Positions 1 to 8,227 of a stretch of 39,223 bases of DNA are shown piece by piece. The stretch is from NCBI GenBank assembly GCA_040380025.1, contig JBEIJY010000024.1, positions 1 to 39,223 of the forward strand, in the 5' to 3' direction. The notes beneath the pieces are model-generated. The model saw only the letters and a list, made by a program, of their open reading frames with translations, searched no databases and had not been told where the DNA came from. Position 1 is the first letter of the stretch; each line of letters opens with the position of its first letter. The position numbers and the translations under genes were made by a program. Source of the stretch: Bdellovibrionales bacterium. Its GTDB lineage: Bacteria; Bdellovibrionota; UBA1018; CAIMNF01.

Positions 1-362
1 GCCTTTATAGCGGTCAAGATCAACAAGTTCTGGAGATTTTTGTTGCTAGCGAAGTCAGAGTTGTGCAGAACTATTCTCTCTAAAAGCTCAATAAGCTCAT
101 TTGGCATATCTGCGTCCATAAAGGCCTTAACAGTGGTGGAAACCTCATCAGCATTCTTGGTCTCTGGGAGAGCAGTCTGTACTACCTGATCAATAACTTG
201 CTTGCGGTGAGGGTTGTCCTCTCTGAGGACGTAAGCCCAGAGATCAGCGCTTTGTCTCTCAACCAGGTAGCGAGCCTGCATTCTGTAAAGGTAGTTGCGG
301 TTGGTAACTTCGACAAGTTCCATGTCGCAGGAGCCCCAGGCTCTCTTGTAAGCGATGAAAGC
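1..362 (-). CDS. Internal fragment of eukaryotic clathrin heavy chain (partial, runs off the window edge); probably contaminant or chimeric sequence
   Basis: Manual translation of the minus strand gives [120 protein letters not shown]. This matches clathrin heavy chain signatures ([13 protein letters not shown].[25 protein letters not shown]). The segment is visibly lower in GC than the rest of the window. Confidence 0.93.
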
Positions 363-3758: not shown

Positions 3759-3848
3759 GACTTTAGTTTACTCCTCCCGGGGGTGCCCCGCAGTCGGCAA
3801 AAACTGCCGAGTTCATTGGAGGCACAAAGGTTGCTTCCCCAAGAGGCA

Positions 3849-5786
3849 ATGAGATTCACCAATCGTAGAGACGCAGGTCAGATTTTGGCAAAACGGATCG
3901 AGAAGAGCGAATGGAAGGATGCCGTGGTTCTCGCGCTTCCTCGCGGGGGCGTGCCCGTGGCCTCGGCGGTCGCGAAGCGACTCGGGGTTCCGCTTCAGGT
4001 TCTTCTTGTCCGGAAGCTCGGCGCGCCCCTTCAGCCCGAATTTGCCTTGGGTGCGGTGGCCGAGGACGGATCGGTCTGGGTGAATGCTCCGGCGCTCCGG
4101 TACGAGGGGATGAAGCCCGCCGACCTCGAATCGATCAAGATCCGTGAGCTCTCCCGGATCAGCGAGCAAAAGAGCAAGTTCCGGGGCGGGCAGGATCTCG
4201 CTTCGATGAGGGGCCGGAAGGTCATTCTGGTCGATGACGGAATCGCAACGGGGGCCACGGTGTTTGCCGCAATCGAAGCCATGAAGCGCCAGGAGGCATC
4301 GAAGATCGCGGTGGCGGTTCCGGTTTGTGCGCCGTCGACCGCGCGGCTCATTCGCGCCGAAGGCGTCGAGCTTATCGATGTGATCGAGCCCGAACGACTC
4401 GCATCGGTGGGAATGTGGTACGAGGATTTTTCGCAGGTCGAAGACGAAGAGGTCTTGCAGGAGCTCGAGGGTGCATCTCCCCATGCCAAGCGAAACCCCT
4501 CCCGCCTGGCCCATCAAATCGCAGAGCGGTTGCTCCCTTTGCAGAGCGAAGAGGACTTCGCGCCGCTGTTGGCGCGTCTTCGAAGCAAGCGGGTCGTAAT
4601 GCTCGGCGAATCCACGCACGGCACTTCGGAGTTCTATCAGCTTCGCGCAAAGATCTCGTCGTATCTGGCGCAAAACGAGGGGTTTTCGTTTGTTGCGGTC
4701 GAAGGGGATTGGCCCGCGGCATTCCGGCTGAATCGCTATGTGAAGCAAGGAGCGGGGAAGTCCGCCCGCGAGGTGATGCGGGGATTCCGTCGCTGGCCCA
4801 CTTGGATGTGGGCGAACGAGGAAGTCGCCGGATTCATCGAGGAGCAACGAAAAGGAAGCAGATGCCCGTTCTACGGCCTCGACATTTATTCGTTCTTCGA
4901 GTCGATGGACTGCGTGATCGAATATGCCGAAAAAGTGAATCCGTTCTTGTCGCGGCTTTTGAAGCAGCGGTATTCGTGCTTTGAGCCCTTCGAGCGCGAT
5001 GAGTTCGCCTACGCGCGATCGCTCCAGCGGTTCCCGGAAGGATGCGCGACCGAGGTGCTCTCGAATCTGGAATCGATTTTAAAAGAGCGGATCATGGCGG
5101 GAGACGACCCCGAGGAACGTTTCAGTGCCGAGCAGAATGCGCGAATTGCGGTGAATGCCGAGAATTACTACCGGGCGATGCTTGCTTCGGATGAGAGCTC
5201 CTGGAATGTCCGCGACAGTCACATGCTCGATACGCTCGATCTGCTTTTATCGAGAAACCAATCCAAAAACCGACCTGCGAAAGGAATCGTCTGGGCCCAC
5301 AACACGCACATCGGCGATTACCGCGCCACCGACATGGCCCGCGCGGGCTATGTGAATCTGGGCGGACTCGCCCGGCAGTCGATGGGGGCGGCGAACGTGG
5401 CGCTCGTGGGATTCGGCACCCACTCGGGACGCGTGGTGGCCTCGCATGCGTGGGGCGGGAGGGAGCAGATTCTTCCGCTCCCGGAGGCGGATTCGGGGAC
5501 CTGGGATTCGTATTTTCATGAGGCGCTGAAGCTTCGTGGATGGCGGCAGGGATATGTGCTGTTCGAGGAGGCGGACCGCGAGGGCGTTTTTGCCGAGGTT
5601 CTCGGACAGCGCGCCATCGGCGTGGTGTATCACCCGGGGCATCCGGCGCGGGGGAATCTGGTGCCGACGTCGCTTTCGCGTCGGTATGATGCATTCGTGT
5701 TTGTCGATCACACGAGTGCGCTCCATTCGCTTCACGGCCCCCATGACGCCGGGAAATTCCCCGAAACCTGGCCCCGCGGGGTGTGA
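3849..5786 (+). CDS. Phosphoribosyltransferase-like domain fused to erythromycin esterase family domain
   Basis: N-terminal F.NR.DAG..LA, LALPRGGVPVA and VILVDDGIATGAT; C-terminal LGESTHGTSEFY, AVEGDWP, RWPTWMWAN, WN.RD.HM and VWAHNTHIGD. Start placed at ATG 3849. Confidence 0.9.
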   Translation: MRFTNRRDAGQILAKRIEKSEWKDAVVLALPRGGVPVASAVAKRLGVPLQVLLVRKLGAPLQPEFALGAVAEDGSVWVNAPALRYEGMKPADLESIKIRELSRISEQKSKFRGGQDLASMRGRKVILVDDGIATGATVFAAIEAMKRQEASKIAVAVPVCAPSTARLIRAEGVELIDVIEPERLASVGMWYEDFSQVEDEEVLQELEGASPHAKRNPSRLAHQIAERLLPLQSEEDFAPLLARLRSKRVVMLGESTHGTSEFYQLRAKISSYLAQNEGFSFVAVEGDWPAAFRLNRYVKQGAGKSAREVMRGFRRWPTWMWANEEVAGFIEEQRKGSRCPFYGLDIYSFFESMDCVIEYAEKVNPFLSRLLKQRYSCFEPFERDEFAYARSLQRFPEGCATEVLSNLESILKERIMAGDDPEERFSAEQNARIAVNAENYYRAMLASDESSWNVRDSHMLDTLDLLLSRNQSKNRPAKGIVWAHNTHIGDYRATDMARAGYVNLGGLARQSMGAANVALVGFGTHSGRVVASHAWGGREQILPLPEADSGTWDSYFHEALKLRGWRQGYVLFEEADREGVFAEVLGQRAIGVVYHPGHPARGNLVPTSLSRRYDAFVFVDHTSALHSLHGPHDAGKFPETWPRGV

Positions 5787-5875
5787 TGGCCTCGCCTGCC
5801 CGCGGGTTCGGGCCGAAATGTCCTTGGCGCAGAGGAGCCAATTTCACGAGGATGGTTTAAACCCGTCGAACAGGT

Positions 5876-5892
5876 CTGGCACAGACCCTGCT
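5876..5892 (+). promoter_or_regulatory. Putative sigma54 (-24/-12) promoter
   Basis: CTGGCACAGACCCTGCT has exact GG-N10-GC spacing and is close to the YTGGCAC-N5-TTGCW consensus. It also forms a small palindrome (GGTCTG/CAGACC), so a terminator role is an alternative. Confidence 0.6.
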
Positions 5893-5932
5893 TTATAAGA
5901 AATCAGCCGCCAACGAAAGGAGGCGGTAAACA

Positions 5933-6628
5933 GAGCGACACTAGGTTGATGTTTCAGCGGGTGAGAGTCCCGCCGCAGAGGTTGTCCAGTGACTGCGAAG
6001 CACCAAGCGCCACGGAGCGGGGGAAACCCTTCTGAGTGGTTCTGGAAAAGGCCCCCGGAAACCGGAGGTCAGCGCAGGATCAGGTTGCAGCGAAAGCGAA
6101 TCCCGATGACGTCGGATGTGCGCCGAGTGAGGGTAAAACTTCATGAAGGCAATATGACGGGCGAAGTACTGGATGCAGGCAGTACGTCGGCACATGCCGG
6201 TAGAGGGAGTGACATGATCTCAAGAAACAGAGACGAAAGTGCGGAACTTCTCCGGTTCCTGAAAGAGGCTTCTCTCTTTCAAAATCCGCCGGTGCGCCCG
6301 GTGGAGGTTCCCGAGAAGGTCAGTGAGGTCGATAAGCGTTGAAGACCGGATGAGCACAAACCGGTCGGAGCGAGGACCTCTGGAGGAAGCTGTGCGCTTG
6401 AGTCGAGTCGGGAATTTCTCTTCATCGAGAGTGCCCGGACGGGAAATGCCAACCGAGGGTTCGGACTGTGGATGCGAGAAGCACGCTTGAGCAGTCCGGA
6501 GCACCGGGAATGCCTCCCGCCCGAATGACTCCCTCCGTGAGCCGTAGCGGGGAAAACCCAACATGCGGTAAAACCAATGGTGGGCCGTGGATCTGCAGGG
6601 AATGCCCTGTGACGCCACGGCCCTCCAT
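5933..6628 (+). ncRNA. ORF-less group II intron-like RNA (domains I-VI recognisable; non-canonical ends)
   Basis: 5' GAGCGACAC (cf. GUGCGAC). DI elements GCGGGTGAGAGTCCCGC, GGGGAAACCC and GCCGA..TGAAGGCAAT..TCGGC. DII CTTCTC..GAGAAG. DIII GAGGTC..AGCGTTGAAGACCGG..CCGGTCGGAGCGAGGACCTC (6325-6380). Short DIV with no RT. DV-like GAGCCGTAGCGGGGAAAACCCAACATGCGGT (6539-6569). DVI-like hairpin ending in AT (6577-6628). Confidence 0.8.
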
Positions 6629-6634
6629 TTTTTT
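6577..6634 (+). terminator. Long hairpin plus U-tract (domain VI-like helix doubling as an intrinsic terminator)
   Basis: ATGGTGGGCCGTGG (6577-6590) pairs with CCACGGCCCTCCAT (6615-6628) with one T-T mismatch and is followed by a T run. Confidence 0.6.
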
Positions 6635-6661
6635 GAAAAACCCGAAGATTCAGTGTAACTT
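6633..6661 (+). promoter_or_regulatory. Possible sigma70 promoter giving a near-leaderless pccB mRNA
   Basis: TTGAAA-N17-TAACTT ending 9 nt before the ATG at 6671; no SD sequence visible. Confidence 0.35.
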
Positions 6662-6670
6662 CGTGGCACC

Positions 6671-8227
6671 ATGTCAAAACGAAGTGATGAAGTCCTGAAA
6701 GAGCGGGAACGCCTTGCCGAGCTCGGTGGCGGCGAAGCCCGGATCCGAAAGCAACATGAATCAGGGAAGTTGACGGCGCGGGAGCGCATCGAGCTTTTGC
6801 TCGACCCCGGAAGTTTCGTGGAGCTCGACAAATTCGTCACCCACCGGTGCACGGATTTTGGCATGGAATCCCAAAAATTTTATGGCGACGGCGTCGTGAC
6901 CGGCTACGGCACCGTGAACGGCCGGAAGATCTGCGTGTTCTCGCAGGACTTCACGGTGTTCGGGGGATCCCTCTCGGGCGCCCATGCGAGCAAGATCTGC
7001 AAGGTCATGGACCTCGCGCTGAAGACCGGCGTTCCCGTGATCGGGCTCAATGATTCGGGCGGTGCGCGCATTCAAGAGGGCGTGGAATCGCTCGGCGGTT
7101 ATGCCGAGATCTTCTGGCGGAATGTTCAGGCCAGCGGCGTGATTCCCCAAATCAGCCTCATTCTGGGCCCTTGTGCGGGCGGAGCCGTGTACTCGCCCGC
7201 GATGACGGATTTCATCGCGATGGTCGAGGGCTCATCCTATATGTTCGTGACCGGTCCGGATGTCATCAAGACCGTGACCCACGAAGAAGTGAGCAAAGAA
7301 GACCTGGGCGGAGCCGAGACCCATGCGGCGACGAGCGGCGTGTGCCAGCTTGTGTATCCGGATGAGCGCGCCATGTTCGAAGGCGTGCGGAGGATGCTGG
7401 ATTTTCTTCCGTCGAACAACCTGGATCGCGCGCCGGTCAAAACCCCAAATGATTCTCCCGAGCGGCTTTGCACTCGAATCGCCGAGATTTTGCCCGATGT
7501 CTCGAGCAAACCCTACGACATTCGTCTCGTGATCGAAGACGTGGTCGATGACGGTGAGTTTTTGGAGACCCACAAAGCCTACGCGCCCAACATTGTGACC
7601 GGATTTTCGCGCCTGAACGGAGCCACCGTGGGTGTGGTCGGGAACCAGCCCGCGCATCTGGCCGGGTGTCTCGACATCGCCGCATCCGCAAAGGCCGCGC
7701 GGTTTGTGCGCTTTTGCGACGCCTTCAATATTCCGCTCGTCACCTTTGTCGATGTTCCCGGATTTTTGCCCGGAACCGCCCAGGAATACGGCGGGATCAT
7801 CCGCCACGGAGCGAAGCTTTTGTACGCATACTCCGAGGCCACGGTGCCGAAGCTCACGGTCATCACCCGCAAGGCCTACGGCGGCGCATACGACGTGATG
7901 TCGTCGAAGCACATTCGCGCCGATCTGAACCTGGCCTACCCCGATGCCGAAATCGCGGTGATGGGGCCGGATGGCGCGATCAATATTTTGTACCGCAAAG
8001 AGATCGCCGAGGCCGCCGAGAAGGGGAATCTCGACGAGGCCCGTGCAAGTCTCGTGGCCCGCTACAAAGAGACCTTCGCGAATCCCTACAAGGCGGCGGA
8101 ACTCGGGTACATCGACGAAGTGATCGATCCGAAGTTCACCCGTCAGCGCTTGATCCAGGCCCTGGGGATCCTGGCCGGAAAACGCGAGCCGGGGCCGAAG
8201 CGCAAACACGGCAACATTCCACTCTGA
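6671..8227 (+). CDS. pccB: Acyl-CoA (propionyl-CoA) carboxylase carboxyltransferase beta subunit
   Basis: [58 protein letters not shown] and KHGNIPL motifs. Confidence 0.95.

Follow-up and report, generated by a model that had tools for sequence, protein, structure and literature searches.

The window analysed here is a stretch of 39,223 nt from a Bdellovibrionales bacterium (contig JBEIJY010000024.1), and the subject of this report is a putative structured RNA encoded on its forward strand at approximately 5903-6634. The RNA lies in a gap of 884 bp (5787-6670) between an open reading frame (ORF) in which a phosphoribosyltransferase domain is fused to an erythromycin-esterase domain (3783-5786) and a pccB-like carboxyl-transferase ORF (6671-8227), the latter followed by a biotin carboxylase gene. 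A first-pass annotation, made from the sequence alone, had reported this gap as free of any credible protein; its size was given exactly and the two longer ORFs within 5787-6670 matched no Pfam family. That annotation also held that the RNA interrupts no gene, which agrees with its intergenic position. It is present as a single copy in its own 98%-complete genome (by blastn and family profile). The gene content of the window is of a housekeeping nature (propionyl-CoA carboxylase, methylmalonyl-CoA mutase, GMP synthase, QueF, and others).

A sigma-54-type -24/-12 box precedes the RNA at 5877-5892 on the forward strand (TGGCAC-N5-CTGCT, with GG at 5878-5879 and GC at 5890-5891), in keeping with the GG-N10-GC consensus of sigma-54 promoters. 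The promoter proposed initially was therefore recovered at this position, and a box of the form NGGYAY-N5-NTGCN was found in all 28 promoter-bearing loci of the family described below, whereas none was found within 80 nt upstream of 18 mobile relatives (0/18). Boxes of this form number 28 in the 2.35 Mb of the genome, against 18.8 expected from base composition, and an rpoN gene is present (Sigma54_DBD, 216.8 bits). Transcription from the box would begin near 5903, giving a leader (5903-5929) with a hairpin at 5906-5927 that is capped by CGAAAG and has a predicted folding energy of -12.4 kcal/mol (z -4.3). At the other end, a GC-rich hairpin (6576-6629; -37.7 kcal/mol, z -6.2) is followed by seven T at 6628-6634, where transcription is predicted to terminate. 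Alignment of the genus showed that the box, leader hairpin and 3' hairpin are conserved, with many compensatory pairs, and that sequence further upstream is not. By eye, dyad-symmetric words were noted 50-80 nt 5' of the box in several species (window 5790-5830; L004, L007, L008), such as ATCCCG-N7-CGGGAT and GTCCCA-N5-TGGGAC, which are possible sites for an enhancer-binding protein.

Between leader and terminator, the consensus fold of 28 relatives contains all six domains of a group II intron, from domain I (D1) to domain VI (DVI), in canonical order. A remnant of the intron 5' end is recognized in alignments at 5930-5938 (ACAGAGCGA, where mobile relatives have GUGCAGCGA). It leads into the scaffold of domain I (5936-6243), in which 101 pairs were counted, 38 of them compensatory within the subgroup of the window; this scaffold includes the former exon-binding site 1 (EBS1) hairpin (6127-6144), with the stem GUGAGG/CUUCAU and a fixed loop, GUAAAA. 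Domain II (6244-6321) follows from the consensus fold, and domain III (D3; 6325-6381) has an invariant GGAGCGAGGACCUC stretch, with 95% of cells paired in the subgroup and 88% identity between G000 and G011. Domain IV (6382-6537) is 156 nt long, close to the approximately 155 nt first estimated, and holds no ORF. A domain V (DV)-like hairpin is found at 6542-6568, with an AGC triad, a G.U wobble, a GAAAA loop and mismatches beside the bulge. The last element (6576-6634) is a hairpin derived from DVI with its core at 6578-6626; it lacks a bulged A and, together with the T-tract, resembles an intrinsic terminator. Folding of the single sequence by minimum free energy gave the same domain layout (z -6.4, 0/20 shuffles).

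Comparison with Rfam gave no match at gathering score anywhere in the window. Under permissive filters, the group-II-D1D4-4 model (RF02003) matched 5955-6095 with 41.2 bits and an E-value of 1.5e-7 (gathering score 49), so that a covariance-model match does exist; the order of motifs first described is borne out by the consensus fold. The DV/DVI model (RF00029) had no match in the window even at E<=10. The curated score of RF02003, which the copy in the window does not reach, is reached by 17 of 17 mobile relatives tested. As to DV, the AGC triad noted in the first-pass annotation is present, as is a G.U wobble, with mismatches beside the bulge; the loss of basal pairing taken there for a deviation is not peculiar to the promoter-bearing RNAs, as the same basal A of the triad is unpaired (A.A) in the mobile relatives.

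To establish how widely the RNA occurs, several searches were combined. With blastn, one match each was obtained in 8 of 16 congeners (63-75% identity where full-length), and no match in 24 genomes from beyond the genus. Searches with the Rfam D1 model covered 116 genomes of the order and a 151-genome sample of the phylum, and their matches were classified with the family profile. This survey added 17 full-length relatives; its strict filters lose weak matches, and the diverged copy of G009, which it missed, came from blastn. Additions within the genus were G004 (three copies in all), G005, G014 and G015 (two copies), while those beyond it were three more genomes in family f4 and eight more in families f15, f17 and f24. 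The remaining matches of the D1 model lacked the box and were ordinary introns, starting with GUGCG or GUGUG. The family now stands at 28 loci in 23 genomes from five families of the Bdellovibrionota-labelled phylum, plus two metagenome contigs.

The position of the element is conserved to a considerable degree. It lies between an esterase-like gene and pccB in seven of nine loci, with flanking proteins that are 57-76% and 86-91% identical, and the order esterase-RNA-pccB is retained in 8 of 11 loci of subgroup A, that of the window, despite an RNA identity of 63-75%. The RNA also occurs independently of these neighbours: G002 carries it, complete with box and terminator, between an unknown ORF and a gene for a YkuD transpeptidase, neither related to the usual flanking genes, and in G013 and the metagenome contig L135 extra ORFs are inserted on one side of it. 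Neither the element nor the esterase gene was seen upstream of pccB in ten further genomes.

Substitution patterns show that the fold is under selection. The family-wide consensus (28 sequences) has 92.1% paired cells, and compensatory changes, counted where both sides of a pair differ, affect 125 of its 211 pairs, against 33-54 in slid controls and with 0/500 shuffles reaching this. In the subgroup of the window alone (10 sequences), 82.4% of cells are paired and 68 of the 211 pairs have compensatory changes, slid controls giving 17-32. When the two deepest sub-clades are compared, identity is 85-96% in D3 and DV and 50-66% in D1, D2, D4 and D6. These comparisons show that the six-domain fold is maintained by compensatory substitutions and that D3 and DV are its most conserved parts.

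The closest relatives outside the promoter-bearing family are mobile introns. A metagenome scan for the invariant DV core detected at least 121 loci; one relative was found in an Acidobacteriota-labelled metagenome-assembled genome (L026) and dozens in soil-type metagenome contigs. Among genome contigs, the 61 pattern matches were mostly unrelated, with nine having a substantial profile match and three more a match at the pattern site only. Such scans detect only copies with that exact DV, and the sample of mobile copies is accordingly narrow, its shallow branches in the tree being partly an effect of sampling. The mobile relatives are approximately 775-830 nt long and ORF-less, and their matches to group-II-D1D4-4 score 51-86 bits. 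Homology among them begins exactly at GTGCAGCGA in 23 of 23 copies with a visible 5' end, the upstream sequences being unrelated, and ends in ...CCTACCCGAC in 20 copies, again with unrelated sequence beyond. DVI carries a bulged branch A six nucleotides before the 3' end and ends in ...CCUACCCGAC (20 copies). In D1, the loop of one hairpin can pair with the final six nucleotides of the copy's own 5' exon, with 6/6 matches in 12 of 18; the mean number of guide-exon matches was 5.56, compared with 4.49 +/- 0.15 after permutation, and this was reached in 0 of 2000 permutations. Given the exact ends, the bulged A, the varied insertion sites and the 6-nt guide match, these relatives are regarded as genuine mobile introns of the ORF-less group II type, with an EBS1 of 6 nt.

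Several of the mobile introns occur in tandem or nested arrangements (L098:380-560, L134:1300-1480, L156:1280-1538, L188:290-480, L149:200-700), in which the second copy starts within the DVI loop of the first (after ...TTCGAAGCC) or directly after its ...CCCGAC end, and pieces of group II classes D1D4-2 and D1D4-6 adjoin them. In L026 (1076-2572), a canonical group II intron begins a few bases past the DV of the ORF-less copy and replaces its DVI; this second intron scores 91.5 bits with D1D4-4 and 111.9 bits with D1D4-2.

Set against these introns, the RNA of the window has lost the characters on which splicing and mobility depend. Its subgroup has ACAG, GGAA or AGGA where mobile introns have GUGC, position 1 corresponding to 5930 in the window, and instead of a GUGYG-type boundary (GUGCA in this lineage) the sequence at 5930-5934 reads ACAGA. 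The absence of GUGYG had been observed in the first-pass annotation, although with a register that was 3 nt off: the GAGCG taken there as the 5' end represents positions 4-8. G1 together with U2 is found in none of 20 promoter-bearing RNAs. In the subgroup, the place of the guide is taken by a closed hairpin whose loop is fixed as GUAAAA, GUGAAA or CUGAA, and the best pairing between the leader of the window's copy and this hairpin is 4/6 and located in the stem; pairing of EBS1 with the intron-binding site 1 of the 5' exon, seen in 12 of 18 mobile copies, thus does not form here. DVI ends in ...CCCUCC in the subgroup, compared with ...CCUACCC in mobile introns, so that the branch A is missing, as it is in all 11 aligned subgroup-A copies, and the RNAs terminate in a T-tract or CUC and not in ...CGAC. 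The branchless DVI and the T-tract had both been listed as deviations, and neither state was seen in the mobile relatives. Within the 98%-complete genome no RVT_1 gene, no match to RF00029 and no canonical intron were found, which leaves no candidate reverse transcriptase (RT) or maturase acting in trans of the kind that had been suggested for a search. The copy in the window is left with no 5' GU, guide or branch A, has neither a 3' junction nor flanking exons, and has no RT at its disposal; it should be unable to splice or move. The end of the leader (5924-5932) and the former guide loop (6131-6139) were seen by eye to share the same A-rich word, GGUAAA(A)C in this genome and GGUGAAA in G002, G013 and L135; the two are not complementary.

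In an unrooted maximum-likelihood tree, 20 promoter-bearing and 18 mobile rows are split by one branch with 100/100 support, and the promoter-bearing RNAs form three deep subgroups (A, B and C). In subgroups B and C, positions 3-9 of the former intron start are retained and DV is canonical: its helix is AGCCGUA/UACGG, the bulge has 2 nt, and the upper helix shows covariation with the mobile introns. Subgroup C also retains an equivalent of exon pairing: the end of the leader pairs 6/6 with the former guide hairpin in four of five RNAs, with a compensatory change in G066, and a general loss of the guide in promoter-bearing RNAs was ruled out on this account. Subgroups A and B do not show this pairing and most of their members have a GAAA-capped leader hairpin instead, which displays compensatory changes in both subgroups and is absent in G001 and subgroup C. 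The distance from the GC of the box to a GCGA anchor, measured in 20 loci, is 43-52 nt where the leader hairpin is present and approximately 20-30 nt where it is not. The DV triad of the 20 RNAs is AGC in 13, UGC in four, GGC in one and AAC in one, and G054 has no DV. Taken together, the alignments mark the subgroup of the window as the most derived of the family. Box, leader pairing and 3' hairpin are all retained in two members of subgroup C, L243 (G054), which has no DV, and L227 (G066), which has the AAC triad; in each case an HPF/S30AE gene lies directly downstream of the RNA.

Public RNA libraries contain traces of the element. Between 19 and 44% of its sampled words are held by 24 runs from 13 studies, and four runs from four studies were compared with 5200-7300. 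Contigs lying wholly inside the element were of 670 nt (5914-6583), 649 nt (5919-6567), 390 nt (5924-6313) and 441 nt (5951-6390), and loose contig ends matched G011-like and G013-like variants. Three of them begin 11-21 nt past the predicted start (5914, 5919 and 5924), but contigs cannot show starts; they reveal neither strand, ends nor level and may contain DNA. In the four runs, no contigs from this organism covered the flanking genes or the terminal hairpin past 6583, and no joints were listed; neither was counted as evidence on transcript ends, abundance or absence of splicing. The contigs are compatible with a transcript from about 5903 to 6634, and are suggestive only.

The neighbourhoods of paralogous copies differ from that of the window, where a domain survey saw no stress island around the RNA. 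A Host_attach/baeRF-family-12 gene lies directly upstream of the RNA in four loci and HPF/S30AE downstream in two, and Hsp20, CBS-domain, FtsH and alpha/beta-hydrolase genes are also found alongside paralogous copies. One published study (PMC6514570) describes a conserved baeRF-1-HPF neighbourhood, which its authors propose to act in shutting down translation. Reading of the printed sequences showed that 7 of 10 subgroup B/C loci have a gene on the same strand, preceded by a Shine-Dalgarno sequence, whose start lies 15-46 nt beyond the hairpin; the corresponding distance is 35 nt in the G011 clade and 44 nt in the window. The genome of the window also has what appears to be an empty site (L245:1240-2540, contig C1), in which a perfect box (TGGCACCGGCTTTGCA, reverse strand) stands 38 nt before a gene with two CBS domains. 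No RNA separates the two, and the CBS gene converges on a Host_attach/baeRF-family-12 gene. In one of the G015 copies (G015a), the order is box, RNA, 21 nt, CBS gene. The RNA and stress genes thus have this promoter type in common, and at some loci the two may be transcribed together. The first-pass annotation gave the RNA its own promoter; the box itself is conserved throughout the family, but exclusive ownership does not follow, as this promoter type also fronts stress genes and may serve the RNA together with the gene that follows.

Given the conserved box, the lost splice signals, the compensatory changes and the synteny, it is probable that the window encodes at about 5903-6634 (+) a domesticated, non-splicing, promoter-driven RNA gene of approximately 730 nt derived from a group II intron. 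Its descent from a group II intron lineage is shown by homology and fold. The initial proposal that a former group II RNA is now a separate RNA rather than an intron is supported. Activation by sigma-54 would lead to the RNA of approximately 730 nt being made as a stable particle, whose function would reside in the folded group II core, in trans and not in splicing; the trigger would probably be stress or starvation, by analogy with paralogues in baeRF/HPF/Hsp20/FtsH/CBS islands. As to what the core does, we consider it close to an even chance that catalysis persists in the form of a hydrolytic or phosphotransfer reaction, with a substrate recognized by some means other than the old guide. Points in favour of catalysis are that D3 and DV are the best conserved parts and that DV is present in 19 of the 20 aligned RNAs. 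That the core is instead a non-catalytic scaffold or decoy has a good chance as well, if one that falls short of even. The most specific version, an exon-less, promoter-driven ribozyme that has kept its active site and performs a new trans reaction under sigma-54 control in stress or dormancy, is put forward as a tentative and on balance unlikely model.

A number of observations weigh against parts of this interpretation. The copy in the window is below the Rfam gathering score and its DV is not recognized by RF00029. The tree is unrooted, and a single domestication is one possible reading of it. The start, end, strand and sigma-54 dependence of the RNA are read from sequence. Catalysis has against it the triad changes, the lack of DV in G054 and the mismatches beside the DV bulge in the window's own subgroup, while a stand-alone RNA has against it the close same-strand genes, the hairpins that lack a T-tract and the box that appears to drive a CBS gene directly. 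The proposed stress link would be one made through paralogues, the neighbours in the window being housekeeping genes.

These last points bear on the rival explanation to which we give most attention, namely that the element is a cis-acting leader, the long 5' part of a sigma-54 transcript whose terminal hairpin is an attenuator or processing point for the gene that follows (pccB here; HPF, Hsp20, CBS, FtsH or hydrolase genes elsewhere). The spacing of 15-46 nt to same-strand genes in 7 of 10 B/C loci, of 35 nt in the G011 clade and of 44 nt in the window would suit such a leader, as would the hairpins of the G011 clade, G015b, G105 and G066, in which the T-tract is missing, and the pair formed by the empty site (box, 38 nt, CBS gene) and G015a (box, RNA, 21 nt, CBS gene). 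The copy in the window, however, ends in a strong hairpin with seven T, and the RNA is kept even though the downstream gene changes (YkuD in G002), is convergent (L135) or is 105-140 nt away (G013, G004a), and the downstream genes are too varied for a single ligand-type logic. We therefore regard the cis-acting leader as improbable, though it is the explanation with the best claim among the rivals. A guided nuclease is less probable again. The hydrolytic endonucleolytic ribozymes known as HYERs (Liu et al. 2024, Science) are described in two citing papers as ORF-less class IIC introns of approximately 600-640 nt with no protein gene of their own and a target recognition site of 6-7 nt. An RNA of this kind in the window would act in trans as a protein-free hydrolytic endonuclease, pairing with RNA or DNA targets via the former EBS1 loop, an option that the first-pass annotation had raised. 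In its favour are the derivation from group II, the lack of an ORF and a length of 600-800 nt, as stated for HYERs in the citing papers, together with the strong conservation of DV and D3 and the use of a 6-nt guide in the homologous loop by the mobile sister introns. The loop is, however, short (4-6 nt) and fixed within subgroups (GUAAAA in the window, UCAA in subgroup C), and would specify one fixed short target and not a programmable one; the triad changes and the loss of DV in one member also count against it. A guided nuclease of the HYER type is considered quite improbable for the window's copy because of this short, fixed former guide loop.

Two further explanations deny the RNA any new role, and both are very improbable. 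The element could still be an intron, located in a 5' untranslated region and splicing by hydrolysis, by which the leader would be joined to the downstream message. Some group II introns that have no branch A are known to splice by hydrolysis, and subgroup C keeps its 6/6 leader-hairpin pairing, including the compensatory change in G066. The subgroup of the window, on the other hand, lacks GU, the guide pairing, the branch A and the ...GAC end, and positions 3-4 are not conserved; of the subgroup-C members with the pairing, one has a dead DV (AAC) and another has none, and no RT was found in the window's own genome. Alternatively, a dead ORF-less intron could be drifting between genes, with the box and T-tract arising by chance, as would be expected of a copy below the Rfam gathering score with its splice signals missing. 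Such a decaying relic is already contradicted by the covariation (68 compensatory pairs within the subgroup, slid controls giving 17-32) and by the conservation of the box (28/28 loci against 0/18 mobile copies), and it accords poorly with synteny kept at 63-75% nucleotide identity and with a distribution over five families of one phylum. It had been foreseen that deviations unique to this copy, with no transcript, would indicate a relic; the fold is instead kept by compensatory changes, and the deviations are common to its relatives, none of the 20 promoter-bearing RNAs having G1 and U2 and none of the 11 aligned subgroup-A copies the bulged A.

Bacterial group II introns are known as selfish retroelements, and their ORF-less copies as passengers of these or as HYER nucleases. 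No description of a promoter-driven, exon-less group II-derived RNA was found in full-text literature, a search that took in neither supplements nor subscription journals. The RNA that we propose shares with mobile ORF-less introns of the D1D4-4 type the six-domain fold, full-length alignability, the class of DV and the architecture of DVI. The mobile introns differ in having the GUGCAGCGA start, a variable 6-nt guide, the bulged branch A, the ...GAC end and no box, and in occurring at many unrelated sites, including as nested copies, whereas the RNA of the window is single-copy and syntenic and has a box. Compared by description, HYERs are likewise ORF-less group II-derived RNAs, and the RNA of the window is distinguished from them by its short fixed loop, the lack of splice-site features and a host-type promoter. 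A second point of comparison is with OLE, ROOL, GOLLD and the raiA motif, which are long, structured, conserved stand-alone RNAs, some of them linked to stress or ribosome-hibernation genes. The RNA described here resembles them in these structural respects and differs in deriving from a group II intron, in carrying a sigma-54-type promoter and in that, to our knowledge, no ribozyme ancestry is known for any of the four. The spliceosomal U2 and U6 small nuclear RNAs are presumed descendants of group II domains, and with them it would share a group II-type core freed from exons and provided with its own promoter; it differs in being bacterial, in being unfragmented, with six domains in one RNA, and in having no known substrate.

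If the interpretation is correct, a vertically inherited whole group II fold with a promoter of host type, no splice signals and structural selection across a phylum would represent the domestication of a ribozyme by its host. The few large non-coding RNAs recognized in bacteria would gain a structured member whose ancestry is known, and its paralogues would link the family to ribosome-hibernation and proteostasis genes. The relatives may be arranged as a natural series, from mobile introns through subgroup C, in which the leader docks, to subgroups A and B with their new leader hairpin, and this would let experiments ask which parts of a group II core stay once splicing is no longer the function. 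Should the RNA be an active trans ribozyme, it would be a living bacterial parallel to the presumed group II step toward the spliceosomal catalytic RNAs.

Elsewhere in the window, one unusual feature was noted. A partial ORF at its edge (3-323, reverse strand) matches a Pfam 'Clathrin / VPS' repeat with 56.4 bits, which is unusual in a bacterial genome.

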